Shown here: in pieces, positions 19,616 through 34,635 of the stretch
Position numbering within the stretch: position 1 is the first letter of the stretch
How the letters are laid out: each line of letters begins with the position of its first letter
Source: a virus
Length of the DNA stretch: 64,000 nt
Strand: one strand, 5' to 3'
IMG/VR virus record: IMGVR_UViG_3300040959_000769
Coordinates: 64,001 to 128,000 of that record
Translations under genes and position numbers: made by a program
The notes under the pieces: generated by a model
What the model was told of the DNA's origin: nothing
Database searches by the model: none
Seen by the model: only the letters and a program-made list of their open reading frames with translations

Positions 19616-20169
19616 ATATGTTAGAAATTCAATGGGTTAACGGACAAGACCTTAACGCCGCAGAGTGGCGAGCAAACTACGTTTTGCAACCAGATCTTCG
19701 CGTGCTCTACCAAAGCATGAAAGATTACGGCTGGATCCAACCAATCATTGTCCAAAAGAAAACCAACGTGATCATTGACGGTCACTACAGGTGGGAAATT
19801 GCTGGCTCCCTGAAACCGTTTGAAAAGAAATACAAGTCCCTTGTACCCGTGGTCTACGAAGACTGTAGTGACACAGAGGCAATGATGATGCACCTGCGAC
19901 TCAACAGGGGTCGGGGGTCTGTTGCAGGCAAACAGATGGCACGAATCATCAGAAAAGTAAAAATGTCACGCAAGTACGATGAAAAAGATTTCAAGCGTTT
20001 ACTTGCAATGCACTATGACGAAATTGACATTATGGTTGATGGAACCCTTCTGAAGAGTAGGAATATCGCTGATCACAAGTATTCAAACGCTTGGATACCA
20101 GTTGAAGCGCCCGCAGATGCAACCGAAACGGCATCAATTATTGAACGCCCACCAAATGCGGATAGATGA
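19612..20169 (+). CDS. ParB-like partner protein (IbrB/YbdM-like)
   Basis: L.AAEWRANYV...SMKDYGWIQPIIV...IIDGHYR...HLRLNRGRG; ATGA overlap with the PAPS-reductase gene. Confidence 0.82.
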   Translation: MNMLEIQWVNGQDLNAAEWRANYVLQPDLRVLYQSMKDYGWIQPIIVQKKTNVIIDGHYRWEIAGSLKPFEKKYKSLVPVVYEDCSDTEAMMMHLRLNRGRGSVAGKQMARIIRKVKMSRKYDEKDFKRLLAMHYDEIDIMVDGTLLKSRNIADHKYSNAWIPVEAPADATETASIIERPPNADR

Positions 20170-20414: not shown

Positions 20415-21482
20415 ATGAAAATTGGGATTGCATCCAACGACTGGTCGCGAACAGTCTTCAATCAGTACGGAAACGTTCCAGGCGGAGCTAACTACATCCG
20501 CCTACAGCAATGGCAACGCCACTCTGAACACAAGTATGTCTCTGGACTTTTAGCAACTCACCCGAACAAAGGTTTCGGAATTGTTGACCATCGAGGAACT
20601 CAGCACTACGACATTGATGTAGTGATCATGCAGCGAATCATGCATCGTCAATTGACAGAAGATCTAATGAGCCCCAAAAACAGAAATAAATTAGTTATCA
20701 ATGATTTAGATGACTGGTACTGGGGTTTGCATCGCGACAATCTTGCTTATCAAAGACTGCAAGAAAATGCTGACAGCGACGAAACACTTGACTACTACAA
20801 AAGCAATATAAAACTCTCAGATGTAGTGGTTGTCTCAACACCTTTCCTGTTTTCAAAGATGGCACACGAATTCAGTATTGGATCAGACAAAGTCCACATG
20901 ATTGAAAACAGAGTTGATACCGACAAGTACAAGAGAAAACCAATTTCATCAAAGAAGCCAATCCTTGGATGGGTCGGGTCAACGCTACACCGTTCCATGG
21001 ATCTGGAGATATTGCAGGATTCACTATCCGACGGGGAATACCGCATGCACCACACCGGCTACGCTGGTGGACCAACAATGGCAAGCAAAATAGGCATTGA
21101 TCCAGGAAGAGTCACAACATCACCGATGTTCGATCCGTATCAGTATGGTCAGAAAGCCTTCACATCCTTTGATGTCGGGCTTGCACCTCTTAACGATGTT
21201 CCGTTCAATCACGCCAAGTCATGGATCAAAGCGATCGAATATGCCGCCGCAGGAATCCCATTCGTATGTTCGGACATCAGCGAATACCGGCGTCTGCAAA
21301 CCACATACGGAATAGGTCGTCTAGCTTCAACATCAGACGAGTGGAAACAACACCTCGCGGAACTAAAGAACCACTCAGTCAGGAAAGAAGAATCAGAAAA
21401 GGTCTACAAAACGGTACGTGAGCATCTTGACGTTCGTGAAATGGCCAAAGATTGGGATGCTTTAATTAGCAACTACACGTAG
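20415..21482 (+). CDS. GT-B fold (GT4-like) glycosyltransferase
   Basis: DLDDWYW, DVVVVST, LGWVGS, DVGLAPL...FNHAKSWIKAIEYAAAGIPFVCSD. Confidence 0.88.
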   Translation: MKIGIASNDWSRTVFNQYGNVPGGANYIRLQQWQRHSEHKYVSGLLATHPNKGFGIVDHRGTQHYDIDVVIMQRIMHRQLTEDLMSPKNRNKLVINDLDDWYWGLHRDNLAYQRLQENADSDETLDYYKSNIKLSDVVVVSTPFLFSKMAHEFSIGSDKVHMIENRVDTDKYKRKPISSKKPILGWVGSTLHRSMDLEILQDSLSDGEYRMHHTGYAGGPTMASKIGIDPGRVTTSPMFDPYQYGQKAFTSFDVGLAPLNDVPFNHAKSWIKAIEYAAAGIPFVCSDISEYRRLQTTYGIGRLASTSDEWKQHLAELKNHSVRKEESEKVYKTVREHLDVREMAKDWDALISNYT

Positions 21483-21483
21483 G

Positions 21484-22236
21484 TCACAAGAAATACAAAG
21501 CCCCCGACCCGCCGTGGCGAGCATATCTATCCTTCATCGTTTCACTCTCCATCTCTGACTTCCTCACCTCGTAAGGAGGTAAAGGTCCGCGATGAAATTC
21601 GTGAGAATAAGTCCCACAGTAATGACCGATCAAAGTTGGCCGATGTGGGTTTGATCTAACTCGAGATCCACGGTGGTAGGTCTGGGAGTGCCAACCTACG
21701 ACATCACCCTTGCTGCCTTCAAAACGATAAATCTTTGGCTTCTTCTCCGCAATTTCAACCAAGATTCTTTGATTGACAATCTCGTCCTCAGCGTCTTTGT
21801 GATTTTCTCCGTCAAAAGAAATATGTTCCCACTTGTGAGAACCAACGATCAACTCAAAAGGTCCAGACTGGTCGTCAAGTTCACCCAAAGCGACAATCAC
21901 GCCAACATAAGTTGAGTTGGCATGAGGATCAGGCAGCAAAGCGTCCTTGTGCCAGCCGCACTGGGTGGATCTCTGCATGGTCATTTCTACGTGCAGAGCT
22001 GCCGCCATCTCAATTTCTTCAAAGGCACTTTCAATGGCTTGATGGCAAAGCACGTCAAGAATTTCCGGGTGCTCCAAGTATTTCGTGCTACGTCCCCATC
22101 CGTCAAGAGATTCACCATGGTTATGTTGGTACATCTCCAAATATGAATCAATAACCTCCCCAGGGATAGCGCTTTGCAACACAAAAAATCCGTCTTGCTC
22201 GTACTGCTCCGCAACGCTTCTTTTGTCGTTCATCAT
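21484..22236 (-). CDS. PhyH (phytanoyl-CoA dioxygenase)-like Fe(II)/2OG oxygenase
   Basis: GWHKD, VIVALG...SGPFELIVGSH, GDVVGWHSQTYHRG. Confidence 0.85.
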   Translation of the reverse strand: MMNDKRSVAEQYEQDGFFVLQSAIPGEVIDSYLEMYQHNHGESLDGWGRSTKYLEHPEILDVLCHQAIESAFEEIEMAAALHVEMTMQRSTQCGWHKDALLPDPHANSTYVGVIVALGELDDQSGPFELIVGSHKWEHISFDGENHKDAEDEIVNQRILVEIAEKKPKIYRFEGSKGDVVGWHSQTYHRGSRVRSNPHRPTLIGHYCGTYSHEFHRGPLPPYEVRKSEMESETMKDRYARHGGSGALYFL

Positions 22237-23057
22237 TCTCCCGAGTTATGCATGTTGGCTCGATACCAGCCGGAACCGTGCCACCGCATATCTGGATCGC
22301 GTTCCATTGATTCGACTACTTCACTAAGTTGTGGTCGTTCTGTTGACTCTGACCAAGTCCAATGATTGGAAAAATGCCCAATCAATGCTGGTCTCGGAAT
22401 GTTCCTACGTGGCGGAGAACCGCGATGAATTACCCTGCTGTTCCAGAACAGTGCATCGCCCTTCTTCGGCATGAAAGTTGTGACCTCATGTTCGTTATTA
22501 TCCATCGCCATTTGACACATGTGGAGCATCCCCAAGCGATTGTCTTTGCCGAACGATATGTCAAGATCCCAGCGATGAGAACCCTTCAGGTATTGGAATG
22601 GACCTGAACCCTCATCAATGTCAGCCAAAGCGATCCACACTCCAAGATATTGATCTGCACCGTTGGGATTGTCGTTGAGTTCATCAACGTGCCATCCGGT
22701 GTTTGACGATCTCCAGTAGGTCAGATCGGAGTGCAAGGCAAGGCACATGTCAAGTTTTGTGAAGGTGTCCGAAATTGACTGATGAAGAAGCAGATCTCGA
22801 ATCTCCGGATACTCCAAGTACATCTGGTCAATGCCGGTGAAGCGCTGATGGTTATCGTCAAAGGTGAAGGTTTTGTGCCAAAAGTTGTTGACGTAGTCAT
22901 CAATGACCGCATGCGGCACCAAACCAGGGCATTCAACTACCCCGTTTTTTTGAAATGTTTGGAGAAGTGTTTCAGTTTTGCCTGTCAAGGTGGACGATTG
23001 CGACAATTTTTTCTCCATCGGTGCATGCGAGAGATTCGTACACGAGACTACCATCAA
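22233..23057 (-). CDS. PhyH-like Fe(II)/2OG oxygenase (paralog of 21484)
   Basis: GWHVD, VWIALAD...SGPFQYLKGSH, GDALFWNSRVIHRG. The true start is probably downstream of 23057. Confidence 0.85.
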   Translation of the reverse strand: MMVVSCTNLSHAPMEKKLSQSSTLTGKTETLLQTFQKNGVVECPGLVPHAVIDDYVNNFWHKTFTFDDNHQRFTGIDQMYLEYPEIRDLLLHQSISDTFTKLDMCLALHSDLTYWRSSNTGWHVDELNDNPNGADQYLGVWIALADIDEGSGPFQYLKGSHRWDLDISFGKDNRLGMLHMCQMAMDNNEHEVTTFMPKKGDALFWNSRVIHRGSPPRRNIPRPALIGHFSNHWTWSESTERPQLSEVVESMERDPDMRWHGSGWYRANMHNSGE

Positions 23058-24537
23058 TCAACATTGCATCCCCAGAGCAGGGCTTATCTAAAATTGTTGT
23101 GCCTTCTTTTTCGCGTATCACAATGTTTCCATTTTTGTAATCGTCGTTCAAGAAGAAAATCAGTGTCGTCGTTCCCGCCATCTCAACGTTATATGTTTCA
23201 CCTTCTGGCGCACCAGCACCAGATCCTTCAACGAACTTCATGTGCGACAAGGAATTACCCAGGTCGTAAGCAAGATGCCTACATCCAAAGAATTCATCTG
23301 CATGTTTGATTACTTGAGCTATTGAATCGCCGATGTTTTCATACAAAACATTTGAGTAATGCGCTTCGTTTACGAGGTGTAGATGTGTTGACTCGGGAGG
23401 TGAGTCCGGACGCAGATTTTGCCATTCTGCTGATTTTAGGTTTGGGTAAATCTCTGAAGAGTCAAAGCATTCCTCAATGATGAGTACGCCTTCAACTTCA
23501 GGTGTCTTTAAACGCATTGTTTTGTCTTTCTTCACAAGAGATGAATCAACAAGTCGTCTTTCCATCGGATCCGCCTGTGTGCCAACAGCGAAACACCAGT
23601 TTCCACGGAAGCGTCGTTGCCCCTCCTGCATTCCACCCCTGACTCCGTGAGCCATTCGGAACAGGTCAGGCAACGCAAAATCACCTTCATCCCATTTATG
23701 CCACATCTGGATGTCGTTGTTGTAAGTAATTTCTTCAGTGATCTTCACCATCAGGCGATCGAAAAATTCAATTTCTTCTTTTGTGGGTTGCCTGCCGTCA
23801 AAGAGAACTAGATGATCTTGGATGCCCCAAGGCGCACTACATGGGCAAACGCGCAGCGTGTCTCTGCCTGATGCGGGGTGAGGGTCTACGGCTTGCCTGG
23901 AGTAAGAATTGATGTAAGAGTCGCCATCAATCATGGTGACTTTGTCGCGTTTTGCCTGCACAAAAAGATCTGCCATGGACAGGTTTTCGTCATAGGGGGC
24001 TTCATAAATTGCCTCTATGAATTTTCGACTCAGTTTGTAGGGGTCGCCTTGTTGCCAGTTGGGAACGTGAATGATCCTGGACTTTTTTAGGAATTCTTTT
24101 TCCGGCTCAGCAAGATCGTCGTACATCTTGCACATATCAACGAGCCCGGTTTTCCCGAATTCGCTACTGCACGCAAAAAGCTCCATGTTCCACCCGGCGG
24201 CATACTGTGGCCACCGCATAGCAACGCCTTCTACATGCCATTGGATTAGATCTTTTTCAGGTGAGTTGACGCCATCCTCTTCGTCCTGCCTGATCGCCTT
24301 ATCGTGATCCTGCATGTATGGCCAACTAAGAGTGTCTTCGCGAGGTCCGTTGTCATCAGTTGCGAAAGCAGTGAAGTTCAACTCGGGGCCAAGCGCTCTA
24401 AAGATTTTCACTACTTCAGCGTCAGAGAAGTACGCTTTTTTGAAAACGATCATTCCATGCTGCTTGTAAGCAGCGGCGTACAAAGATGGGTTTTCAACTA
24501 CTTGCTCAACTGTGTGTTGATCAAATTCAACAATCAT
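22972..24537 (-). CDS. TauD/TfdA-like dioxygenase fused to a degenerate P4H-like 2OG domain
   Basis: QWHVE, GKTGLVDM, HKWDEGDFALPDLFRMAHGVR. The C-terminal IFFLNDDYKNG domain lacks HxD and the distal His. Confidence 0.75.
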   Translation of the reverse strand: MIVEFDQHTVEQVVENPSLYAAAYKQHGMIVFKKAYFSDAEVVKIFRALGPELNFTAFATDDNGPREDTLSWPYMQDHDKAIRQDEEDGVNSPEKDLIQWHVEGVAMRWPQYAAGWNMELFACSSEFGKTGLVDMCKMYDDLAEPEKEFLKKSRIIHVPNWQQGDPYKLSRKFIEAIYEAPYDENLSMADLFVQAKRDKVTMIDGDSYINSYSRQAVDPHPASGRDTLRVCPCSAPWGIQDHLVLFDGRQPTKEEIEFFDRLMVKITEEITYNNDIQMWHKWDEGDFALPDLFRMAHGVRGGMQEGQRRFRGNWCFAVGTQADPMERRLVDSSLVKKDKTMRLKTPEVEGVLIIEECFDSSEIYPNLKSAEWQNLRPDSPPESTHLHLVNEAHYSNVLYENIGDSIAQVIKHADEFFGCRHLAYDLGNSLSHMKFVEGSGAGAPEGETYNVEMAGTTTLIFFLNDDYKNGNIVIREKEGTTILDKPCSGDAMLIDGSLVYESLACTDGEKIVAIVHLDRQN

Positions 24538-25202
24538 TTTTCGTCGTCGTATTCCTCAGCCAAGAAGTACTCAATCGCTGCTCGAATACGTTTCAACCCT
24601 TCTTTTGGACCGTATTCGTCGTAGCCGGTCTCAAAGTTTGCTGGCAGCAGGCACCCGTTAGTGAATCGTGCTCGCCGCTTGCCGTCACGGGAAACAATAA
24701 ACTTCTCAAAGTTGCCCAAAATCAACGAACCTGGATCAATACCAAGCCTCTTATAGATGGGGTGTGGCTCAAATGAGCGGTCGTCGTCTTCTCGGCTGTA
24801 ACGAGATTTAACCAACTCGGTGAACGGTAGACGGACTCGGTAGTTGTAAAAGGCGTAGTTGTAAGCCTCTTCAGCCGTGCTCGTCGAGTTGTTTGCAAAG
24901 TCGCCATACGCGAACTCGCAATAGTCGTTAGTTGGCACGCAAACAATTTGAAAACCCTGATCTTCATAGTCGTATTGCAGAACCTGAAGCATCGGATACT
25001 GCATTGAGTTTCCGCACTCTCCTGTCACGTTGACAATCATGGTGACGTTACCGCGTTGATTAGTGATCAGATCGCCTTCTTCGCTGTCAAAAGGCAAAAG
25101 CGGAATGTCGTAAACGCTTTCCCCGTCAGCAGTTGGGCCAAGATCATGTTCGGAGACGAGTAGATCCATCATTTCTTGTGAAATTGACTCAATTTTCGCC
25201 AT
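24534..25202 (-). CDS. Glutathione-peroxidase-like protein (divergent)
   Basis: IVNVTGECGNSMQY, VCVPTND, NFEKFIVSRDG; start reassigned to MAKIES, 6 nt after a TATTAT hexamer. Confidence 0.8.
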   Translation of the reverse strand: MAKIESISQEMMDLLVSEHDLGPTADGESVYDIPLLPFDSEEGDLITNQRGNVTMIVNVTGECGNSMQYPMLQVLQYDYEDQGFQIVCVPTNDYCEFAYGDFANNSTSTAEEAYNYAFYNYRVRLPFTELVKSRYSREDDDRSFEPHPIYKRLGIDPGSLILGNFEKFIVSRDGKRRARFTNGCLLPANFETGYDEYGPKEGLKRIRAAIEYFLAEEYDDEK

Positions 25203-25208
25203 GCAGGG

Positions 25209-25260
25209 ATAATACCATTCCCTTGCTCCTCGGCGATAAAACCCCAAAATATGCTACAAT
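25209..25260. promoter_or_regulatory. Divergent promoter pair: TGGTATTAT (minus, 25209-25217) and TGcTACAAT (plus, 25252-25260)
   Basis: Extended -10-like motifs in the gap between divergent genes. Confidence 0.55.
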
Positions 25261-25293
25261 CGGTGTTGCACCAGTGTTCTGTAGGAGACGAAG

Positions 25294-25545
25294 ATGGTAG
25301 CTCTCAACAATATCAACAATGACCAAAAACTCTATCATTTGAATCTTATCAAAGAGTCTGCTGAAGAGTTGATTATCGTTGCAGCGCTTCACGCTGGAGT
25401 AAACCCAGAAACCATTGACACTGGCACGCACCCACTGCCCGACAGTTTTGACACAGAGGCAGAAGACTTCAACCAACTGGACGTCAACCTGGCGGAACGG
25501 GTCAAGCAGTACAACGATCTCGTCACGCGAATCAACTCACTCTGA
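25294..25545 (+). CDS. Small acidic helical protein (paralog 1)
   Basis: 83 aa, GGAG RBS, ...AEELIIVAALHAGVNPETID. Confidence 0.75.
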   Translation: MVALNNINNDQKLYHLNLIKESAEELIIVAALHAGVNPETIDTGTHPLPDSFDTEAEDFNQLDVNLAERVKQYNDLVTRINSL

Positions 25546-25552
25546 GGTCAAA

Positions 25553-25765
25553 ATGATTTTCTCAATCTCCAACGAAAAGAAAAGAAGCGCCGCACTCAAT
25601 GGTGTTGCCGCATGCGAAGAAGACGTATTCATGGCTTGCATGTCACTCAACATCGATCCAGTATCAGTTGCTGACGACTATTCCAGCGATGACCCCTCCT
25701 ACGAAGTATTGTCAGATGCAATGCAAAAACTCCGAGACGCAAAGGCGTACTTGGCAGCACTCTGA
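25553..25765 (+). CDS. Small acidic helical protein (paralog 2)
   Basis: Start reassigned to MIFSIS after GAGG; ...CEEDVFMACMSLNIDPVSV. Confidence 0.75.
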   Translation: MIFSISNEKKRSAALNGVAACEEDVFMACMSLNIDPVSVADDYSSDDPSYEVLSDAMQKLRDAKAYLAAL

Positions 25766-25780
25766 CGCTAGGAGCACAAA

Positions 25781-25993
25781 ATGGCATTGTCAGCAGCTCA
25801 AATCGCTCAAGCGAGAAGCGAAGCCCAAGACTTCTTGGAGTACTCAATCTTCGTGCTTTGCACGTTTCTGGAAGTTGACCCAGAAACAGCAACGTCCGCA
25901 ATGGAAATCCCCGTTTCCGAAGCAGATCTAAACTATTACAACTACGTCTCGCTGAAGCGACAATTGTCGGCATTTGAGGCTCTAACGGCATGA
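25781..25993 (+). CDS. Small acidic helical protein (paralog 3)
   Basis: AGGAG RBS; ...LEYSIFVLCTFLEVDPETAT. Confidence 0.75.
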   Translation: MALSAAQIAQARSEAQDFLEYSIFVLCTFLEVDPETATSAMEIPVSEADLNYYNYVSLKRQLSAFEALTA

Positions 25994-26220
25994 AGTTTTC
26001 GTCACCTCACCTTCGAGCCGTTCTGGATGGGGATGATCGACATCCAAGCGAAATCGCTACATCAACTGGACGCTTCGTGCCTGAGGAAGAAACACCCGAA
26101 TCGGAAAGCGTCAACAACAACATGGGAGCCGCAATCACCTTCAACCCTTCCGTTGGAGCGCTTGAACTTGCCGAAGAAGGTGCAGTCATCATCTGCGAAA
26201 AAGTTAGAAAAGACACCTAA
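25990..26220 (+). CDS. Hypothetical protein
   Basis: 76 aa; ATGA overlap upstream and TAATG overlap downstream. Confidence 0.65.
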   Translation: MKFSSPHLRAVLDGDDRHPSEIATSTGRFVPEEETPESESVNNNMGAAITFNPSVGALELAEEGAVIICEKVRKDT

Positions 26221-26555
26221 TGGCCATCAGGACCTCAACTCCAACATCAGGCAAGGTTTATAGCCCTCAGGCGGAACTTGACTGGACAAGCACACACTTG
26301 CTGTCATGCTTCTACATCTTGGGTCTCACAGAAGATGATATGGATACATACACCATTGACGACCTGGTTGATCGTTGCACTTGGATGTTTGAGCCACACA
26401 CCCTTGAGGCTTACCTGACTGTCTTAGGTAAAGAAAGATCATACGACCCCGGATTTTCTTTCGGCAGAAAACAGCGCAGTTGGATGGTTCTCCTAGTCAG
26501 AAGGTTCTGGCGTCGTCGCCATATTTCGCAGTACGAGGTGAACAGCGGTGTCTAG
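26220..26555 (+). CDS. Hypothetical protein
   Basis: 111 aa, translationally coupled ORF. Confidence 0.65.
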   Translation: MAIRTSTPTSGKVYSPQAELDWTSTHLLSCFYILGLTEDDMDTYTIDDLVDRCTWMFEPHTLEAYLTVLGKERSYDPGFSFGRKQRSWMVLLVRRFWRRRHISQYEVNSGV

Positions 26556-27321
26556 CAGCATTTTCCATAAAGGCGTCGTTGCTCGAAGCCTTTCCACTAA
26601 CCAAACTGGAACCACTTGGGAAGACGAGTTGAGCGTTGTGCGCGACTACTCCCGCCTCGCCGATGCGGCAATTACTGCCGCCAACGCTGACATGCGACAA
26701 GCTGCCGTTGGTCGAGACTGGTACTTCTGGAAATATTCCACGTGGCTAGGTGAACAAGACAACACATGGCTTGAATACGCTTGGCGCAACTACGTAGCAG
26801 TTAAATCTCTATATGGCGTTCTGAAGCCAAGAGACTTGGAAACAACTGAGAAAATTCTCATCTCTGGATCTTTCCCCATCCAGATGCACACGGCACACAT
26901 GCAGGCAGGGACAAAAGATTATTACTGGTTGAACTCACTTGAAACCAGAATCATGGAAGACACGCTGAACGAGAACGGAACCATCCCCAATCAACCAGAG
27001 TGCTCCTACAAAATCATTGACTTTGAAGACTTTGAGCAAGGCACAGTAACGGAATTTTTTGATTCAGCCCGCCTGCACACCCATGACTTCCTGACCCCGA
27101 ACCTAAATCTGGTTGACAACATGCTTGACTCAATCAGGGTAGGCGGAATCATGATGATTTACGATCTTGCTGAATTCGGCGCTTTGTACGAAGACGGCAT
27201 GCGCGCCCACGAAGAGCGAATGCACCGGATCAACCGCCGTATTGCCCAACGTGAAGACTACGAGGTGTATCACTTGGCACACGACGAGATCGGTACAGTT
27301 CTTGCCTACCGCATCGGCTAA
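26548..27321 (+). CDS. Putative class I SAM-dependent (O-)methyltransferase-fold protein
   Basis: C-terminal LVDNMLDSIRVGGIMMIYD ... INRRIAQREDYEVYHL...GTVLAYRI resembles O-methyltransferase C-termini. No clear motif I glycine loop. Confidence 0.45.
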   Translation: MSSSIFHKGVVARSLSTNQTGTTWEDELSVVRDYSRLADAAITAANADMRQAAVGRDWYFWKYSTWLGEQDNTWLEYAWRNYVAVKSLYGVLKPRDLETTEKILISGSFPIQMHTAHMQAGTKDYYWLNSLETRIMEDTLNENGTIPNQPECSYKIIDFEDFEQGTVTEFFDSARLHTHDFLTPNLNLVDNMLDSIRVGGIMMIYDLAEFGALYEDGMRAHEERMHRINRRIAQREDYEVYHLAHDEIGTVLAYRIG

Positions 27322-27330
27322 TATAAATAC

Positions 27331-28329
27331 ATGCCCGCAAGATTCGGACCTCCAACTCGAGACAAGTACGCCTATTACAGTCTTGACGAAAACGACTGCA
27401 AAACTGTCAACGAGATTGAGTACACAAATTACAAAGGTGGAGTAATCCACTTCCACAACGTTTTCAACGTTGACCGAGACGTAATTTTGCCATACATTGA
27501 CGAAATGGCATACGTGCCATCATGTGGTCTTGAAATCATCAAAGACGACGAAGGCAACATGCTCCACGGCGAAACTTTTGACGGCAAAATCGTGGACATG
27601 AAAGATCTACTCGCACTACCAATGCGGGTCGGCGGTATGGGGATGCCTGAACCAGTCAACCCAAGCACGCCACACGACGTCAGAAACTTTTTTGAGGGTG
27701 TTGAGGAAAGTTTGTATCACTGCCTAATCAGGTACTGTGATATTTACCCACTTATCGTCAACTCAATTTGGTGGCGAATGAGAGGACACTGTCTCAAGTA
27801 CATGCCAGGAGCGAATCTGGGTCTCCACAACGACAACGACACCAACACCTTCACCATTGATGGGCAGAGGTACTACAGCGAACGAGAGATCGCTATGTAC
27901 CAAGTCGTGAACGGTCTGGCTTATTTCAACGATGACTATGAAGGTGGAGAAATGCACTTCCCCTACTTAGACATCACGGTAAAACCAAAAACCGGAGACA
28001 TCATTCTTTTCCCTGCCAACTATGTTGGAACTCATGGAGTGGCGCAAGTTGGAGAAGGAGCACCTCGATACACCTACCTGACGCAGTTCGGTCATGGCGG
28101 AGAGCACAAATACGAAGTACTGGAGCCTCAGGAAAGCGACATGTGGCTAGCTCCGGTGTATGTGCCTTACCTGTACCAAGATCACGTCAAGTTCTCCCAT
28201 TCGGGCTACTCGCACCTGGACACGTCAAAAGACTCAGCGTTAGGTTTCCACGCCTCAACTATTGAGACGCAGCAACGCTCAAAAGAGGGCGCTCCAGTCG
28301 GAACTAAGATTCCGTACGAAGAGGAGTGA
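27331..28329 (+). CDS. Prolyl-4-hydroxylase-like Fe(II)/2OG oxygenase
   Basis: HND...YFNDDYEGGEMHF...GDIILFP...THGV...RY. Confidence 0.9.
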   Translation: MPARFGPPTRDKYAYYSLDENDCKTVNEIEYTNYKGGVIHFHNVFNVDRDVILPYIDEMAYVPSCGLEIIKDDEGNMLHGETFDGKIVDMKDLLALPMRVGGMGMPEPVNPSTPHDVRNFFEGVEESLYHCLIRYCDIYPLIVNSIWWRMRGHCLKYMPGANLGLHNDNDTNTFTIDGQRYYSEREIAMYQVVNGLAYFNDDYEGGEMHFPYLDITVKPKTGDIILFPANYVGTHGVAQVGEGAPRYTYLTQFGHGGEHKYEVLEPQESDMWLAPVYVPYLYQDHVKFSHSGYSHLDTSKDSALGFHASTIETQQRSKEGAPVGTKIPYEEE

Positions 28330-28975
28330 AAGGAATAGTTCCTATCAGAGTTCCATGACCAAAGAACTCCAGATAGGAAATACGTTCCCCTGACGTTACT
28401 GGCACAACTTCGTGAGTGCCTAAGAAACCGGCAGGATAAACAAATGCTGTTCCCGCTTCGGGGGCGAAATGCTTGTCGATGTATTTGAATCCAAGATCGC
28501 CACCGACGCAATCATCTTTCAGAATCAGAGATCCGGTCAGGACGCTGTAGATCGCTTTTTCGCTTTCCGAACCAGCACCAACTAAGTTGTCGTTGTGATA
28601 TCCCATGTATCCACCCGGTTTGTAGGTAGCGACATGAGGCACGGCTCTCCACCAAATGTTTTCTTTTGCGTCAGGGAAGAAATTGAAATATTTGGTGACA
28701 CATTCACCCATTGATTTTTCAAGAAGTTCTGCAAACTTCAGATCGTCGTCAGTGGTGTTCACTTTAAGTTGCAGAAGACGACCTGGGGAAGCATTGACCT
28801 GCTCCTCTGTGAAGATGTAGCCACCCCTATTCATGTACGTGCCATCATCCTGCAAGGTGTAGTCGCTTGGTTCTTGTTCGCGACGGCGTTCAAGCCATCC
28901 TTCAAAAAACGAAGCATCAATGTCTAGGACATTTCGATACTCAACGATCCCAAAGCCGTGATGGATTGCTTCCAT
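28304..28975 (-). CDS. Prolyl-4-hydroxylase-like Fe(II)/2OG oxygenase
   Basis: HND...GGDLGF...FVYP...THEVVPVTSGERIS. Confidence 0.9.
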   Translation of the reverse strand: MEAIHHGFGIVEYRNVLDIDASFFEGWLERRREQEPSDYTLQDDGTYMNRGGYIFTEEQVNASPGRLLQLKVNTTDDDLKFAELLEKSMGECVTKYFNFFPDAKENIWWRAVPHVATYKPGGYMGYHNDNLVGAGSESEKAIYSVLTGSLILKDDCVGGDLGFKYIDKHFAPEAGTAFVYPAGFLGTHEVVPVTSGERISYLEFFGHGTLIGTIPFTPLRTES

Positions 28976-29556
28976 TACTTCTCGTCAGGGAATTCGGTTC
29001 CACGCTCGCGGTCATTGCGGAGACGCTTCACCTCTTTGGCTGAGGTTTCATGAACCTCGGGTGTCCAGTACCCGTCAGTGAAAAGATCAGCAACCTCCTG
29101 AGCCCTATCTCCTGACAGGTACAGGGTGTGCTCATTTGTGTAGCCTTCACGACCGGGATATGGCCATCCATAAAGTCCGGCTTCAACATAATCAATGCCT
29201 GCTCCGGTGATGATGGATGCAATTTCCTGTTCGGACTCTTCGCCCCAGAGACCGTTGGCGTCAACGTAAAGTCCGTTGTAGCCACGAGATGCAACATAGT
29301 TCGCAATCTCAAGTGGAGCGCCACCAAAAGCAATGCAGAAAATGATGTCGCATTTTGCGAGCATCGCATCAAGGGTCACGAGATCAGTGAGATCAAACTC
29401 TGCTGCACGTTCGTGTGTTGCCTCAGAGCGATCAGCCGATGCCCAGACAACCCTGTGCCCGCTCTTACACAAAGCATAGGCAAGGGTGCCGCCCATCTTT
29501 CCTGGGTGGGCAATTCCAATTGTTTTATCCGACTGGGGGGAGTATTGAGTATCCAT
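28975..29556 (-). CDS. NAD(P)-binding Rossmann protein of the 6PGD/beta-hydroxyacid dehydrogenase type (N-terminal domain only)
   Basis: TIGIAHPGKMG...GHRVVWASADRSEAT...CDIIFC...YVDAN; start reassigned to MDTQY. Confidence 0.75.
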   Translation of the reverse strand: MDTQYSPQSDKTIGIAHPGKMGGTLAYALCKSGHRVVWASADRSEATHERAAEFDLTDLVTLDAMLAKCDIIFCIAFGGAPLEIANYVASRGYNGLYVDANGLWGEESEQEIASIITGAGIDYVEAGLYGWPYPGREGYTNEHTLYLSGDRAQEVADLFTDGYWTPEVHETSAKEVKRLRNDRERGTEFPDEK

Positions 29557-30349
29557 CTTCCATGTACACATTCGTTGAGATTCGGGCAAGGGTAGGGTGT
29601 TCTTGTGGGTCAACCACATTTTCGCAAACATCAGGGTTTGGCGTACCTTGACAATACCACCCCAAGTAAGAGTAGCGCCACCCGCCAGTCACGGGCTGCA
29701 CTTCATGCGCTGCAACATAATTAGACGGGAAGAAAAGCATGTCGCCTTTCTTTATGTCTTCGTGTTTGATATCTAGGTATTCGAAGTTATGAGCACCACC
29801 AGTGAAGTTCGTTCCGTCAAGCTCATCCTCCGACTTGACGTTGTCGTTCAGGTAAGCCACAACCGAAACGCTGTTGCGAGTGGCCAACTGATCACGAGGA
29901 TGAGGCTTGCCGTACTCGTAGTCAGTACTCACATCTGCGTGCATTCCTAAAAACCCGCCAACCGGATAAGCAACAATGTGGCTTTTGATCTTCCACCAAA
30001 TGCACTTACCGGCAATTGGGAACATTTCTAGATACGAGAGAAGACACGCATCTCGGCGCTCCTCAATGTAGTCAAGGACATCAATTACTTCAGAGCGGCT
30101 GTCCTGATGAACGAAACTCCCACGCCACGGCATCTCATCCAACGAATCTTTCTTAAAGAAATATCCGCTCCGATTGATGTAGCCGTCCTCACCAGTAATC
30201 GGGTCAACACCTGGCGTGTACATGGTCTCGCGCTCTGCCTGCAAAACGTCCTTGCAGTATTCACGCATCCAATCCCAGTCAAGGTTGAACACGTTCTCAA
30301 AGAGGACGACACCACCACCGAGGTGTGTACCAACAGGATTATCGCTCAT
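29525..30349 (-). CDS. Prolyl-4-hydroxylase-like Fe(II)/2OG oxygenase
   Basis: HAD...VAYLND...FTGG...GDMLFFP...AHEVQPVTGGWRYS; start reassigned to MSDNPV. Confidence 0.9.
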   Translation of the reverse strand: MSDNPVGTHLGGGVVLFENVFNLDWDWMREYCKDVLQAERETMYTPGVDPITGEDGYINRSGYFFKKDSLDEMPWRGSFVHQDSRSEVIDVLDYIEERRDACLLSYLEMFPIAGKCIWWKIKSHIVAYPVGGFLGMHADVSTDYEYGKPHPRDQLATRNSVSVVAYLNDNVKSEDELDGTNFTGGAHNFEYLDIKHEDIKKGDMLFFPSNYVAAHEVQPVTGGWRYSYLGWYCQGTPNPDVCENVVDPQEHPTLARISTNVYMEDGYSILPPVG

Positions 30350-31907
30350 ATTCATGTTCCCCCAGTTCAAGCATGTATCCAACATAGTCGTGGATGCGCT
30401 CAATGATCCGCTTCCGGTCATCGTTATCTCGAAGATGATTGAAACAACCGTAGATGGTGTCAATAGCAAACTGAACCAAGAAATCCTCGGGAGGATCGTG
30501 ACCCCTGAAGCCTTCGTATGTCATGAAAGACAAATTATGGAAGTCCCATGGGCGAAACTGCAAAGGCTGGTGTGGGAACCAATCGGGATAATGCCATGCA
30601 TGTCCGGCGTGCCGCATGTCTGGATGCCAACGCAGATACGCACGAACCTTCTCAATGACTGTCAACGTGTCGTCGTCATTTGGTGCTTGCTTCATGAAGT
30701 CTTGATGCGGAGGGAACCCGCCATGCATGTCCCCGTTGCGAGAAAACAGGAACGACTGACCCTCAAGATCAAACCCTTCCATGTGGGCTTTGCTGTAACG
30801 CATCAAGTTAGCGAAAATTCGATCCTCCGGATCCATCTTCACTGGGTAGACATGGAAGTCCTCGCCAAACGGTTCATTGTCAAAAAACTCTTTCAACTTG
30901 ACGCCACGCTCAGGAATGTTCCCATCCTTGGTGAAGATGAAAAGCGTTACCTTCTGAAATAGACACTCAAGTCCCTCAAGGGCATAGATTCCCTTTGTGA
31001 AGACAAGAGGAATGTGGTCAGGGTTCGGACCTTTTGACTTGTCCTTATCAACGCCAGGGTATGACTGTACGTCACCAAAGTTCTCGTTACCATCAACCTT
31101 GTACTCGGGATCGTAGAAAGGCTTCTCCTTCCCTACCTCTACCCGCTGGAAGACCCTATCCTCTCGCTCCCAGCCATTGTAAAAACCGTGCATTACGGCA
31201 CGATTGTCCCAGATGACTACGTCGCCTTCTTGCCACGTCCACTTGTAACGATTAGCTTCTGTTCGGCAATACTCCTCAACCCAGTCGTAGAGTTCTTCAA
31301 ACCATGGGGTGCTCCCCCCGTCAAGTTGGGTGCCTGGTCCGGTCCAGTAAAGAAGAGTTTCTCCAGTATCCGGATGTGTTCGCAAGGCGGGATGGCTGAC
31401 AACGTCACGTCCTGCGGCTCCAGTCTCCGCCACGAAACGAGCCGTCGGCAGGTGTTCCTTAATGTGCTCAGGACACTCTTCGTACAGATTTACAAGACTC
31501 ACCCAGAATGTGTGACCGAAATCTTTATCAACACGGTAGGTCGTCATATGGATGGAAGTAACCGCAGGAGGAGCTTCCAAGAACGGGTTATCTACATGCC
31601 AGTTCTCTTTCAGAAACTGTTCAGGATCCGTTTTATCTTCAACATTCTTGACCGTTGGGTGATTTACGCCCGCAAGAAGACCACCGTTGAAATCTTCATC
31701 AACTTCGCCTGTGTAGATAGCGTTGACCAGTTTCATGTGCTCCTGGTCGGTTGGGTTCATGCCGATGAAACCAACCATCTTGTTCTTGTTGAAAATCAAC
31801 TTGAAATACTCTGGGTCATCAAGAACTTGCCGGGCAGTGATGCCTCTCATCTTGAAACCGAGGTTGCCTAGTTTCAGTCCTAAGGCGATTCCGCCAAAAC
31901 CTTTCAT
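30339..31907 (-). CDS. TauD/TfdA-like dioxygenase with an unknown C-terminal domain
   Basis: NWHVD, GHTFWVS, HPALRTHPDTG, WQEGDVVIWDNRAVMHG. Confidence 0.88.
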   Translation of the reverse strand: MKGFGGIALGLKLGNLGFKMRGITARQVLDDPEYFKLIFNKNKMVGFIGMNPTDQEHMKLVNAIYTGEVDEDFNGGLLAGVNHPTVKNVEDKTDPEQFLKENWHVDNPFLEAPPAVTSIHMTTYRVDKDFGHTFWVSLVNLYEECPEHIKEHLPTARFVAETGAAGRDVVSHPALRTHPDTGETLLYWTGPGTQLDGGSTPWFEELYDWVEEYCRTEANRYKWTWQEGDVVIWDNRAVMHGFYNGWEREDRVFQRVEVGKEKPFYDPEYKVDGNENFGDVQSYPGVDKDKSKGPNPDHIPLVFTKGIYALEGLECLFQKVTLFIFTKDGNIPERGVKLKEFFDNEPFGEDFHVYPVKMDPEDRIFANLMRYSKAHMEGFDLEGQSFLFSRNGDMHGGFPPHQDFMKQAPNDDDTLTVIEKVRAYLRWHPDMRHAGHAWHYPDWFPHQPLQFRPWDFHNLSFMTYEGFRGHDPPEDFLVQFAIDTIYGCFNHLRDNDDRKRIIERIHDYVGYMLELGEHEYER

Positions 31908-32629
31908 GAAGGCTCCTTCAGTTGTGGGTGACCCTCAAATGCGGGGCCAATACGATTACCGTTTTCGTCTAGCCCAGTTCGGATGCCACCCATCCAAGTC
32001 CAAGGCTGTTCTTGCAACTTCTTCATCTTTGCATCACCGTACGACTGTCGAGCAGCAGACAAATCTGGCTTGTCCCAGTAGTTCTCAACTGTGAACTCAA
32101 CGCTTGGCATCAGAGAGTTGTCGTAAAACTGGAAAAACATAAAAGGTGAACCAGCAGGAAAAATAACTGGCTGACCAATTTTTGTGATCTTCCAGTTCAT
32201 GTTGAACTCGTCTGGCCACCAGTCAGATGGAATGTGCGCCGTTAAAGGAACAGCCCCATCAACAAAATAGTTAGGTGACCCGCTTATCCACGTGGACACT
32301 CCTGGAGGCGTTGAGAACGTCCACCCAACAGTGAACGACATAATCCCAACAATGCTGGGCATAACAATGTCACGTTCGTAAGTCTGACCATTTGTCTCAA
32401 ACGTCATCTTCTCGCCGGACAGGACACGAGGAACAGTCAGCCCCCCGTCCCATTGAATAACAACATCTTGTTGGAGAAGAACCTCCCAACCGTTGACGTT
32501 TGCTTCAGTCAGGGGAAGACACTTGTATGCATGCTTCTTGTAGGTGTCATCCATCCAGTCGCGTCGAACTGACGCTTGCTTTATCTCAGGTGGATTTTGA
32601 TGTGTTCTAGTGAGAGTTACATCCATCAC
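31904..32629 (-). CDS. DUF6065-like protein
   Basis: RDWMD...HAYKCLPL.EAN..GW...WDGG...PLT..I.SDW.P..F.MNWK matches my recollection of DUF6065 motifs. Confidence 0.75.
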   Translation of the reverse strand: MMDVTLTRTHQNPPEIKQASVRRDWMDDTYKKHAYKCLPLTEANVNGWEVLLQQDVVIQWDGGLTVPRVLSGEKMTFETNGQTYERDIVMPSIVGIMSFTVGWTFSTPPGVSTWISGSPNYFVDGAVPLTAHIPSDWWPDEFNMNWKITKIGQPVIFPAGSPFMFFQFYDNSLMPSVEFTVENYWDKPDLSAARQSYGDAKMKKLQEQPWTWMGGIRTGLDENGNRIGPAFEGHPQLKEPS

Positions 32630-33327
32630 TGAATAGCCATCGTCTGACCGCTGGCAACAGGAATTCCCATTGTCGTATCTTGCTGCGCCGAGTACCCACC
32701 TCCGCCGTGGCTCTGGTGGTTACGGTCGTTGTAGTCATACATGGTGACGGCAGAATACTTGATTCCACTCTTTACAGGCTGAGAAGCATGAGCGTAAATG
32801 AAATCACTTGGATGGACAATGACATCACCTGCTTCGGGGACAAACTGAAGGTTTTTGTACGGCATGATGTACTCGCCGCCTTCGTAGTCGTCATTCAAAT
32901 ACCCAATAGCAGACACGGCGCAAGAATAAGAAAACCCAGAGTCAGGATGAACTGAGAAATGCTGCCCCTCGCCATAGCGAACGAAGTTGGTGGCTTCTTC
33001 ATAGTCAAGTTGCAAGTTGTACATTGACGAGTAGTGCTGCACGCACTGGCGTACACCAGAAATAACTTCCTCGTACACCCGTCCAAGATCTGCGAACTCT
33101 TCAGGAACAGGGATGTCTGCTTGACGCAACTTGAAGTCAACGCAATCTCTGTAATCCTTCATCACCTCGTAGTCTCCAACTGTCGCCTGCTTCCATGAGA
33201 AGTATTCGTGGGTGCTCTCAGCGAGACCGGTTTCAAGTCGAGCGATGAAGTTTGAGTCAGGTGCCCAAACGTCTTTGTACAGCATGATGCCGTCGGTCGG
33301 GTTGCCCAAGTATCCGCCAATTCTCAT
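32626..33327 (-). CDS. Prolyl-4-hydroxylase-like Fe(II)/2OG oxygenase
   Basis: VRYGEGQHFSVHPD...YLNDDYEGGE...GDVIVHP...AHASQPVKSGIKYS. Confidence 0.92.
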   Translation of the reverse strand: MRIGGYLGNPTDGIMLYKDVWAPDSNFIARLETGLAESTHEYFSWKQATVGDYEVMKDYRDCVDFKLRQADIPVPEEFADLGRVYEEVISGVRQCVQHYSSMYNLQLDYEEATNFVRYGEGQHFSVHPDSGFSYSCAVSAIGYLNDDYEGGEYIMPYKNLQFVPEAGDVIVHPSDFIYAHASQPVKSGIKYSAVTMYDYNDRNHQSHGGGGYSAQQDTTMGIPVASGQTMAIQ

Positions 33328-33330
33328 TAT

Positions 33331-33963
33331 TTACCTCAGTTCAGTGATTGTGTAGAAAGAAGGGGTAGTCCATCTTTCTCCACGGGTAATTTGTTTTACA
33401 CCATGAAGATAGTGGACATCACCTGGATGTGCTACCGCTAAGCCTGGTTTTATCGGAATTTCAATATCGAACTCAGGGTAATAAAACTCGCCACCATCAA
33501 AATCTTCGTTCCAGTAAATGATTGAGTTCAGGTCATACAGAGGGAAAGGATTTGGCTTTCCGTCATTCAACTGTTTATCCGCGTGTGGTTGCTGCTCATT
33601 GCCTGGAAGCCATCTGATAAGTACTGGCGGGCGCTTGTATAGAGCAACGTTGAATTTGTCCTCCAACACTTTTTGCATCTTGTCAATATATTTATCAATC
33701 AGATTAAATATATCTGGGGAGATGCGTTTGAGGATTTCGCCACTACACATTCGATCCCACCAATAGGAGGCGTCGTAAATACACGTGCCATCTTCATCAA
33801 ATTCGTCACCCATAGGATTTTCCCACTCTTCAATAGTCGGGAAAAACTTTTGCAGGGTTTTCAGATCATCTAGATCTACGAAGTTTTCAATGACTGTGAT
33901 GTTCTCTGCTGTTGTTCCGAAGTGACCTGGTTCAACTAGCGATTTTTCTTCAACTTGTTCCAT
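33331..33963 (-). CDS. Prolyl-4-hydroxylase-like Fe(II)/2OG oxygenase
   Basis: IRWLPGNEQQPHAD...YWNEDFDGGEF...HPG...LHGVKQITRGERWT. Confidence 0.92.
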   Translation of the reverse strand: MEQVEEKSLVEPGHFGTTAENITVIENFVDLDDLKTLQKFFPTIEEWENPMGDEFDEDGTCIYDASYWWDRMCSGEILKRISPDIFNLIDKYIDKMQKVLEDKFNVALYKRPPVLIRWLPGNEQQPHADKQLNDGKPNPFPLYDLNSIIYWNEDFDGGEFYYPEFDIEIPIKPGLAVAHPGDVHYLHGVKQITRGERWTTPSFYTITELR

Positions 33964-33965
33964 CA

Positions 33966-34030
33966 GGTAAGCGAACTTACCATAAACATAGATCCCTCGT
34001 CCACCACGTTGGCAGTCAAGGGATCTATGT
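33966..34030 (-). promoter_or_regulatory. Two tandem RNA hairpins in the leader of the hydroxylase operon
   Basis: 12-bp perfect stem ACATAGATCCCT/AGGGATCTATGT (33986-34030) and 6-bp stem GGTAAG-TTCG-CTTACC (33966-33981). Confidence 0.65.
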
Positions 34031-34047
34031 CACTCCTCTTGTTTTTC

Positions 34048-34635
34048 CTACTTAAAGCTCGGCGGGAAGAAAGGCGGGAAGTGTGGTGGGAAGTGAGGCG
34101 GGAACCACGGTGGGAAGTGTGGTGGGAAGAACGGTGGGAAATGTGGTGGGAAGTGTGGAGGGAAGAACGGCGGGAAATGTGGCGGGAAGTGAGGTGGGAA
34201 GTGTGGAGGGAAGTGAGGTGGGAAAAACGGTGGGAAGTGCGGAGGGAAGTGAGGAGGGAAAAATGGTGGAAAATGCGGAGGGAAATGGGGAGGGAAAAAC
34301 GGCGGGAAGTGGGGTGGAAAGTGCGGAGGGAAGAATGGCGGAAAGTGTGGCGGAAAGTGAGGCGGGAAAAACGGTCCGATTGCGCGAACAGAAATAGTTG
34401 TTCCCAAAGGAATTTCAGTGAAAGTGGTTGTGAGGTTGTATTCCTGACCGTCAACAATGATGTCATGCGCTTTACCGACATCACCTAAAACACTCGTGTT
34501 TAGCGTATCGACAGCTTCAGAAACGGCGGAAAACCCGAGATTCTGCAACGACACCACGAAATTGCCAGCGTCTGTGAGATCGGTATACGTGAACGTACCT
34601 AAAGGTAGTCCGCTTCCGCCTTTGTTACCTGCCAT
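34048..34635 (-). CDS. Pro/Phe/His repeat protein: 87-aa N-terminal domain plus (PPxF)26
   Basis: ORF starts 7 nt after the tail-fibre stop; repeat codons are synonymously diversified. Confidence 0.9.
   Translation of the reverse strand: MAGNKGGSGLPLGTFTYTDLTDAGNFVVSLQNLGFSAVSEAVDTLNTSVLGDVGKAHDIIVDGQEYNLTTTFTEIPLGTTISVRAIGPFFPPHFPPHFPPFFPPHFPPHFPPFFPPHFPPHFPPFFPPHFPPHFPPFFPPHFPPHFPPHFPPHFPPFFPPHFPPHFPPFFPPHFPPWFPPHFPPHFPPFFPPSFK
34054..34374 (-). repeat. 12-nt coding tandem repeat (PPxF) with a 36-nt superperiod
   Basis: PFF followed by 17 PPHF, 7 PPFF, 1 PPWF and 1 PPSF. Confidence 0.97.

Follow-up and report, generated by a model that had tools for sequence, protein, structure and literature searches.

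A PPxF repeat protein gene adjoining prolyl-hydroxylase-like oxygenase genes in an uncultured contractile-tailed phage: a candidate substrate for phage-encoded hydroxylation

The locus described here lies in the IMG/VR virus record IMGVR_UViG_3300040959_000769, a 137-kb genome with a completeness rating of 92%, of which bases 64001-128000 (64,000 nucleotides (nt), referred to as the window) were analyzed; positions are those of the window unless stated otherwise. With a sheath gene (57334-58860) and a tape-measure gene (52352-56026), the genome is that of a contractile-tailed phage. Its fibre operon ends with a gene for a small protein carrying tandem PPxF units, which is followed by an island of 2-oxoglutarate (2OG) oxygenase genes and other enzyme genes. 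All genes listed in an earlier note on this DNA were present at the coordinates reported in it. Downstream of the repeat gene on the minus strand, the order is P4Ha, P4Hb, DUF6065, a TauD-family gene of 522 amino acids (aa), P4Hc, a Rossmann-fold gene and P4Hd, spaced by overlaps of 1-4 nt or small gaps. Next come a plus-strand pair, encoding a 257-aa protein and a fifth PF13640 oxygenase, and a minus-strand block of a glutathione-peroxidase-like (GPx-like) gene, a second TauD gene and two PhyH genes, which is convergent with a plus-strand glycosyltransferase gene. In correction of the earlier note, the enzymes do not all share a strand: 26548-28329 and 20415-21482 lie on the plus strand.

The last large gene of the fibre operon encodes a tail-fibre-like protein of 2094 aa (34642-40926, minus strand) matching PHROG tail fibre and minor tail families with E values down to 2.8e-56. 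Only 6 nt separate its stop codon from the start of the PPxF open reading frame (ORF; 34048-34635, minus strand). ORF and codon analysis characterize the latter as a 195-aa protein, a candidate substrate or fibre-associated rod, with an N-terminal head domain of about 87 aa (34375-34635, minus strand), located at the PASTA position in the alignment with relatives, and an array of 26 PPxF units (residues 91-194; 34054-34365, minus strand) that leaves one residue before the C-terminus. The array contains 17 PPHF, seven PPFF, one PPWF and one PPSF unit, and both the unit count and the codon analysis agree with the 26 units noted earlier at the end of the fibre operon. Codon positions 1 and 2 of both prolines and of the phenylalanine are invariant in 26/26 units, the third positions of these codons vary freely with exclusively synonymous changes, and the identity between units is only 72% at the DNA level. 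This restriction of the variation to third positions indicates that the frame is coding and that the amino-acid repeat is under purifying selection.

In the 137-kb genome this is the sole proline-rich repeat ORF, and a collagen-like Gly-X-Y run was not found. The protein has no Pfam or PHROG family match. Its head does not match the PASTA family PF03793 directly, though it is aligned at the same place as the PASTA domains of relatives, and the hhalign match between the head and the PASTA clade is inflated, being dominated by shared repeat units. An AlphaFold2 (AF2) model of the 195-aa protein is of low confidence (predicted local distance difference test (pLDDT) 52.8) and shows the array without regular secondary structure. 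The array probably adopts a polyproline-II-like conformation, and in extended form the rod would measure about 30 nm. A complex prediction of P4Ha, P4Hb and repeat residues 84-131 scored 0.00 in a run without controls and counts neither for nor against binding.

The two genes following the repeat gene encode prolyl-hydroxylase-like 2OG oxygenases. P4Ha (210 aa; 33331-33963, minus strand) carries the ligands H127, D129 and H187; its PF13640 match (8.6e-4, 20.6 bits) is below the cut-off of 27 bits, which the four other P4H-like genes pass with 30-45 bits. P4Hb (233 aa; 32626-33327, minus strand) matches PF13640 with 3.9e-9 and carries H127, D129, H180 and K190. Searched against the PDB, the P4Ha family profile retrieved prolyl 3-hydroxylase 1 (P3H1; 1.4e-6) and then the Bacillus anthracis prolyl 4-hydroxylase (P4H; 2e-3), and the P4Hb family profile retrieved the B. 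anthracis P4H (2.2e-6) and then the lysyl hydroxylase LH3. At E <= 0.01 the matches of both profiles are exclusively collagen-type peptidyl prolyl or lysyl hydroxylases. The remaining P4H-like genes are P4Hc (29525-30469, minus strand; 2e-11), which probably starts at an internal ATG near 30355 and which is conserved in relatives with 42-83% identity, P4Hd (28304-28975, minus strand; 1.1e-6) and P4He (27331-28329, plus strand; 1.8e-7), which is convergent with P4Hd; in all three the HxD...H motif is aligned. In the alignment of the five paralogues the H, D and H are invariant, and an R or K, the ligand of the 2OG C5 carboxylate, is found about 10 residues past the distal histidine. Including the TauD and PhyH proteins, 9/9 oxygenases of the cluster keep HxD/E and the distal histidine, as observed in the earlier note. 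Judged by their sequences, the P4H-like genes are candidate peptidyl-prolyl hydroxylases. At least four further P4H-like genes are located in the genome beyond the window (genome G000:C1 48565-49335, 130057-130791, 131141-131893 and ~135027-135308). The last of these adjoins a fibre-like ORF (135673-137169), and thus oxygenase genes occur on both flanks of the structural module.

The DUF6065 protein (241 aa; 31904-32629, minus strand) matches PF19541 with 2e-43 (149 bits, cut-off 26.6), and 1254 cluster representatives were found at E <= 1e-3. Its AF2 model (pLDDT 92.8) is a dUTPase-like beta-barrel. Compared with eleven dUTPases, it gave VIA Z scores of 9.2-9.8 and root mean square deviations of 2.4-3.7 A over 107-124 residues, with unrelated rows below 4; the Foldseek E value was 4e-4 and the identity in the structural alignment 8-13%. 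A phmmer search against all PDB sequences did not retrieve a dUTPase at E <= 10. Cys37 is invariant in 67 sequences, and an HxD/E motif was looked for in the protein and not found. In cellular proteins DUF6065 is fused to PF13640, Cupin_8/JmjC, UDP-glycosyltransferase and Stf0 sulfotransferase domains. DUF6065 is likely an accessory partner of protein hydroxylases.

Relatives of the repeat protein were collected with a degenerate DNA pattern for three repeat units, which yielded 54 viral contigs, and with an independent DUF6065 search, which yielded 155 loci. The PPxF family is present in more than 100 viral contigs. From these, 70 distinct repeat proteins were extracted, in which about 80-90 head residues are followed by 8-34 units and a tail of nearly always one residue; position x is His/Phe(/Trp) in one set of these proteins and Tyr/Phe in another. 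Near-identical heads are found with 23 or 26 units, so the array length changes quickly. The PASTA family PF03793 was detected in the heads of three relatives (L034, 7.7e-10; L094, 1.6e-6; L024, 2.3e-6) with 39, 28.4 and 27.9 bits (cut-off 23.2), and other PPxF arrays form the C-termini of a 351-aa Fn3-containing protein and of a 1263-aa InlB-B-repeat protein. The repeat proteins thus constitute a previously undescribed family, in which a PASTA-type, Fn3 or InlB-repeat head is joined to 8-34 PPxF units. Heads of these three kinds are typical exposed binding modules, which is consistent with a virion appendage. When residues 1-88, the head domain, served as the query of a word-index search, no scoring relatives were found. 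In 185,579 prokaryote genomes the repeat pattern revealed no cellular homologue of the system and no host assignment, as the matches were restricted to phage-like contigs in metagenome-assembled genomes (MAGs) of inconsistent taxa and to short unrelated runs. One phage-like contig (CAZRFN010000034.1, comprising loci L153 and L163, from an Acidibacter MAG bin) encodes two PPxF-ended proteins with 13 and 16 units, both located after fibre-like genes. In six loci of the Tyr/Phe clade (L098, L102, L104, L109, L119 and L125) the PPxF ORFs lack an ATG and the first ~20 head residues in frame, which points to a frameshift, a misassembly or an unusual start.

The linkage of repeat and hydroxylase genes was found from both directions. 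All DUF6065-retrieved loci with at least about 6 kb of upstream sequence carry a same-strand PPxF ORF at a distance of 1.3-8.4 kb, including 21/21 loci with full 10-kb flanks. Conversely, P4Ha/P4Hb-like genes are present in all repeat-retrieved loci with enough downstream sequence except one (L018), and wherever the flank of a PPxF locus is long enough, it contains a P4Ha orthologue (56-82% identity). In essentially all related contigs with sufficient flanks the repeat gene follows a fibre gene and precedes P4H-like genes. This linkage spans five diverged sub-lineages, including both the His/Phe and the Tyr/Phe repeat clades, and is kept in the Fn3-headed lineage (L009/L013), where DUF6065 is only 24% identical. 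In the Tyr clade P4Ha is inverted and a variable insert of 1.3-8.4 kb lies between the repeat and the enzymes. The co-occurrence of PPxF ORFs with P4H/DUF6065 clusters that the earlier note had proposed to look for is thereby found in more than 100 viral contigs and in several diverged sub-lineages, all belonging to one syntenic group.

A third retrieval, through the fibre C-terminus, yielded 80 loci, of which 60 had neither feature, five both, four only the repeat and 11 only a P4H-like gene. In 4/4 of the repeat-only loci the sequence stops within 2.5 kb downstream. Five of the 11 P4H-only loci belong to a lineage of 177-205-kb phages, in which the linkage persists in altered form: a PASTA-like head is joined to a degenerate (S/G)PPxFF array that leads through a proline run into a Cys-rich tail, and a P4Hb-like gene is found 2 kb further downstream. 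In one such protein (L178:11354-11758, plus strand; likewise in L174, L176, L177, L186 and L232) five degenerate (S/G)PPxFF units are followed by a PPPPP run and a CPxC...CC..C tail, an ending that differs from that of the window family. The content of the island varies among relatives. Among loci with flanks of sufficient length, homologues of the Rossmann protein, P4Hd and the 522-aa TauD protein were confined to the repeat lineages that contain His and were missing from the Tyr/Phe lineage; as phylogeny confounds this distribution, it was given no weight as evidence.

Apart from the P4H-like genes and DUF6065, the island contains four further oxygenases. The 522-aa TauD-family dioxygenase (TauD1; 30339-31907, minus strand) matches PF02668 with 4.9e-30 over residues 29-242 and carries H104, D106 and H240; its C-terminal extension of about 270 aa showed only a weak thioredoxin-like resemblance (ESM Atlas model, template modeling score 0.3-0.4). 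The second TauD-family protein (22972-24537, minus strand; PF02668 5.7e-16; H101, E103, H297) likewise has a C-terminal extension. The extensions of both proteins comprise 200-270 residues and have no family match. The TauD motifs read WHVD/VMHG and WHVE/MAHG, and the scores are far under every NCBIfam equivalog cut-off; for none of the enzymes of the cluster was an NCBIfam equivalog found. The two PhyH-family dioxygenases match PF05721 with 3.8e-13 (22233-23057, minus strand; motifs WHVD and VIHRG) and 9.7e-13 (21484-22236, minus strand; motifs WHKD and TYHRG).

The Rossmann-fold NAD(P)-binding protein (28975-29631, minus strand) was recognized by weak 2-Hacid_dh_C, NAD_binding_2 and F420_oxidored matches and by a weak match to the N-terminal part of prephenate dehydrogenase. 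The GPx-like thioredoxin-fold protein (24534-25247, minus strand) matches PF00255 with 1e-9 (38.3 bits, cut-off 27) and keeps the cysteine in VNVTGEC; the tryptophan position is a glycine (GNFEKF for WNFEKF) and the glutamine position has no clear alignment. For the 257-aa protein (26548-27321, plus strand), previously described as methyltransferase-like, this assignment is a lead that comes from language-model features: the nearest ESM Atlas clusters are PF01596/PF13578 O-methyltransferases (score 0.93, 176-180 shared features), but no match was found in Pfam, PHROG, the PDB or NCBIfam. The glycosyltransferase (20415-21482, plus strand) was previously called GT4-like, of which a phrog_7162 glycosyltransferase match (3.9e-37) and a weak match to TuaH remain. 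A phrog_7162 search gave 1e-38 in the genome of the window and no match in G005, G006 and G009, the three closest near-complete relatives, which are 97-100% complete. The glycosyltransferase is an accessory gene of this phage outside the conserved module, and with its absence from these three relatives the glycosylation of the repeat suggested earlier is not supported. Just upstream of it, a protein resembling a ParB N-terminal domain is encoded (19612-20169, plus strand; 1.2e-4, below the cut-off), with a homologue of 46% identity in the relative G010. Amid the virion structural genes lies an ADP-ribosylglycohydrolase-like gene (60721-62295, minus strand; phrog_6572, 4.8e-38).

Cultured relatives were sought in 50,697 cultured-phage records, in which neither a megablast search with the cluster nor tblastn searches with the repeat protein and with DUF6065 gave a match. 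The closest cultured sheath proteins, with 37% identity, are those of Gordonia phages. Weak hints to an actinobacterial host come from the PASTA heads, from the sheath, which resembles that of actinophages, and from the Actinomycetota neighbours of the methyltransferase-like protein.

Tentatively, and with a confidence somewhat short of even, we favour the reading that the fibre-associated rod is hydroxylated by the adjacent phage oxygenases. The 195-aa protein would be a virion- or fibre-associated appendage, in which a small adhesion-type head sits on a thin, length-variable rod rich in proline and aromatic residues, and it would be made together with the tail fibres. Before assembly, in the infected cell, the adjacent enzymes would hydroxylate the Pro-Pro pairs at the expense of host Fe(II), 2-oxoglutarate and O2. 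Leading candidates are P4Ha as a prolyl-3-hydroxylase-like and P4Hb as a prolyl-4-hydroxylase-like enzyme, with DUF6065 as a putative accessory partner; the GPx-like and Rossmann proteins may handle peroxide or redox side-products, and the TauD/PhyH-type enzymes may act on the aromatic or histidine position or on other targets. In collagen, the target of prolyl 3-hydroxylation is the first proline of a Pro-4Hyp pair (Hyp, hydroxyproline). For this reason, a P3H-like and a P4H-like enzyme beside a Pro-Pro array would be a chemically coherent combination. What favours self-modification is that a rare protein of the chemically expected substrate class precedes the enzymes in five sub-lineages despite insertions and inversions. 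The unique standing of the repeat among the ORFs of the genome, the fusions of DUF6065 to protein hydroxylases and the precedent of the chlorovirus PBCV-1 also speak for it. The proline-hydroxylated virion appendage of the earlier note is partly supported, by the linkage, the collagen-type nearest enzymes and the adhesion-type heads; its glycosylation step is not. A broader version, held with less confidence than self-hydroxylation as such, is that uncultured, probably freshwater phages of a widespread group use a multi-enzyme pathway to turn (Pro-Pro-aromatic-Phe)n into a rod rich in 3- and 4-hydroxyproline, with a cell-wall-binding head at the fibre tip. In this version the aromatic or histidine position would possibly be further oxidised, and the length of the rod would be tuned by the repeat number.

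Several findings weigh against self-hydroxylation. The repeat gene is parted from the enzyme genes by a strong RNA hairpin of 21 bp (33985-34031, minus strand) in the 84-nt spacer before P4Ha, with a minimum free energy of -36.9 kcal/mol and z = -6.0; 0/200 shuffles fold equally well and UUUAU follows. The hairpin may be the terminator of the fibre operon or a read-through attenuator. It was missed by a simple terminator scan, which permits only loops of 3-8 nt, and a consensus scan for promoters and terminators gave no more than shuffled sequence did. Further fibre genes lie between repeat and enzymes in the Tyr clade, where P4Ha is on the opposite strand. The L018 array at the C-terminus of the 1263-aa protein has a different context, a 45-kb contig without PF13640 or DUF6065, which is only 38% complete. 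The relative G010 (119 kb, 79% complete) has a P4Hb-like gene paired with a weakly DUF6065-like gene and no such repeat, and in the cyanophage Syn9 an array of ten dioxygenases follows the fibre genes without a proline repeat. A bacterial DUF6065-P4H fusion stands alone among housekeeping genes. Clearly, enzymes of such fusions must have other substrates somewhere. In addition, at least 13 oxygenases are far beyond the need of a four-residue motif, and to our knowledge PPxF is not a recognition motif of any P4H. Hydroxyproline was not detected in virions of the chlorovirus PBCV-1, which encodes a P4H (PMC7019647). Finally, all co-occurrence is found within one syntenic phage group, so that shared ancestry can explain much of it. 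Apart from these points, G010 encodes a 703-aa ORF with a (PGMP)n run (G010:C1:50946-53054, plus strand), which is another proline-rich candidate substrate or unrelated.

The strongest competing explanation, which we consider rather unlikely but serious, takes the genes as neighbours by descent: the PPxF protein would be an unmodified spacer or adhesin and the oxygenase island would act on host or other phage proteins, e.g., translation components, which are targets of bacterial protein hydroxylases. The hairpin, which suggests separate transcription units for repeat gene and enzymes, agrees with this, as do the P4H-like paralogues at three further genomic sites, which lie on either side of the structural module, the enzymes that follow fibre genes in G010 and Syn9 without a proline repeat, the bacterial fusion without a nearby substrate gene and the island content differing between relatives. 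It leaves unexplained, however, why an array of 52 prolines precedes prolyl-hydroxylase-like genes in five diverged sub-lineages, and no candidate host target was identified.

A less probable explanation, to which we give little weight, is the tailoring of a small molecule or non-ribosomal peptide, in which the oxygenases together with the methyltransferase-like protein, the reductase and the glycosyltransferase would, during infection, produce or alter a secondary metabolite or a glycan of the host envelope. Enzymes of the TauD and PhyH families mostly have small molecules or free or carrier-bound amino acids as substrates, which fits such a function, and so do the DUF6065 fusions with sulfotransferase and UDP-glycosyltransferase domains and the weak resemblance of the glycosyltransferase to the teichuronic-acid enzyme TuaH. 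It is also the published proposal for the closest described array, that of the Syn9 type (PMC2938197). The Pfam scan of the cluster ORFs, however, revealed no non-ribosomal peptide synthetase, polyketide synthase, ATP-grasp enzyme, terpene synthase or halogenase, the conserved core of P4Ha and P4Hb is of the collagen-type protein-hydroxylase kind and the glycosyltransferase is not conserved.

The modification of nucleotides or DNA by the dUTPase-fold protein, the oxygenases, the glycosyltransferase and the ParB-like protein (19612-20169) is very improbable. It would account for the dUTPase-like fold of DUF6065 and for the ParB-like and glycosyltransferase genes at the edge of the island, but DUF6065 has no sequence match to any solved dUTPase and occurs fused to protein hydroxylases, Pfam assigns none of the oxygenases to the TET/JBP or AlkB kind, and here again the lacking conservation of the glycosyltransferase stands against it. 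The least credible explanation is the second one offered by the earlier note, a precursor resembling a ribosomally synthesized and post-translationally modified peptide, with the N-terminus as leader and the 26 units as cores that would be freed as small peptides once hydroxylated: a multi-core-like repeat does adjoin tailoring enzymes, but the head is domain-sized and aligns with the PASTA domain of relatives, arrays also terminate the structural-type proteins of 351 aa (Fn3) and 1263 aa (InlB repeat), a protease, cyclase, recognition element or exporter was not seen among the cluster ORFs in the Pfam scan, and the repeat gene is the last cistron of the fibre operon.

The earlier note knew of no characterised system of this design, and two described systems precede parts of it. 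The PBCV-1 prolyl 4-hydroxylase (A085R; Eriksson et al., 1999, as cited in PMC7019647) is described there as hydroxylating, in vitro, proline-rich peptides matching viral ORFs, and the role of the enzyme is stated as unknown in this Chloroviruses review (PMC7019647). Like the phage described here, PBCV-1 combines a P4H-type 2OG oxygenase with short proline-rich tandem-repeat proteins. In contrast, it is a eukaryotic giant virus with one enzyme and another repeat type, and its repeats are not adjacent to the enzyme gene, whereas the phage has at least five P4H-like paralogues directly after the repeat gene, together with DUF6065, TauD, PhyH and GPx-like partners. Sequence similarity between the PBCV-1 enzyme and the enzymes of the phage was not detected.

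The second system is the tandem dioxygenase array gp41-gp54 of cyanophage Syn9, for which the synthesis of a secondary metabolite was proposed (Iyer, Abhiman, de Souza, Aravind 2010, PMC2938197). Its layout was checked here, and as in the window an array of several dioxygenase families lies directly downstream of tail-fibre genes and includes a dUTPase-fold protein with a conserved cysteine, which corresponds to DUF6065 with C37. Syn9 gp43 aligns weakly with the DUF6065 profile (E 0.0017, probability 15%); the cysteines coincide in this alignment. Unlike the phage, in whose 17 cluster ORFs Pfam revealed none of these, Syn9 encodes a JmjC/MINA member besides two tryptophan halogenases, and gp40, which precedes the array, is not proline-rich.

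Animal P3H1 and the B. anthracis P4H, the best solved-structure matches of P4Ha and P4Hb, have the same metal and 2OG ligands. P3H1 and P4H act on peptidyl proline in repetitive polyproline-II-type substrates. The likeness is confined to the catalytic core (E about 1e-6) without common substrate-binding domains, and collagen substrates are X-Pro-Gly, whereas the phage repeat is without glycine. Plant extensins and other hydroxyproline-rich glycoproteins as well as mussel foot proteins have repeats rich in proline and aromatic residues, which are hydroxylated into rigid or adhesive rods. Their resemblance to the phage repeat, drawn from general knowledge, is one of design only; in the phage, Ser-Pro motifs, a secretory pathway and a conserved Hyp-glycosyltransferase are all absent. 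Already known are therefore the Syn9-type enzyme array and a virus-encoded P4H with proline-rich repeats. New relative to the searched literature are the family of PPxF rods with PASTA or Fn3 heads, the close linkage of this family to P3H-/P4H-like genes and the fusion pattern of DUF6065 in cellular proteins. A full-text literature search retrieved no papers for DUF6065, nor for the combination of PASTA, phage and proline-rich.

In a Baltic Sea survey, P4HA was among the most frequent viral auxiliary genes, and its viral use 'remains cryptic' (PMC9301287). For cyanophage 2OG oxygenases only speculative roles were given (Sullivan et al., 2010, PMC3037559), and the guesses published from 2007 to 2010 for their multi-copy forms comprise DNA repair, 2OG drawdown and secondary metabolites (PMC3037559, PMC2938197). 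In this context, the locus makes the repeat a testable candidate substrate, for which a small protein and the two or three enzymes encoded next to it would suffice. A negative outcome would shift the substrate search to host proteins. A positive outcome would establish the enzymatic hydroxylation of phage structural proteins and define a family of repeat rods, and protein engineering would possibly gain compact hydroxylases as well as a rigid spacer that can be designed. If the broader version is true, it would provide the first natural substrate both for the 'P4H' auxiliary genes that abound in phages and for dioxygenase arrays of the Syn9 type, and DUF6065 would receive its first function, as a hydroxylase partner.

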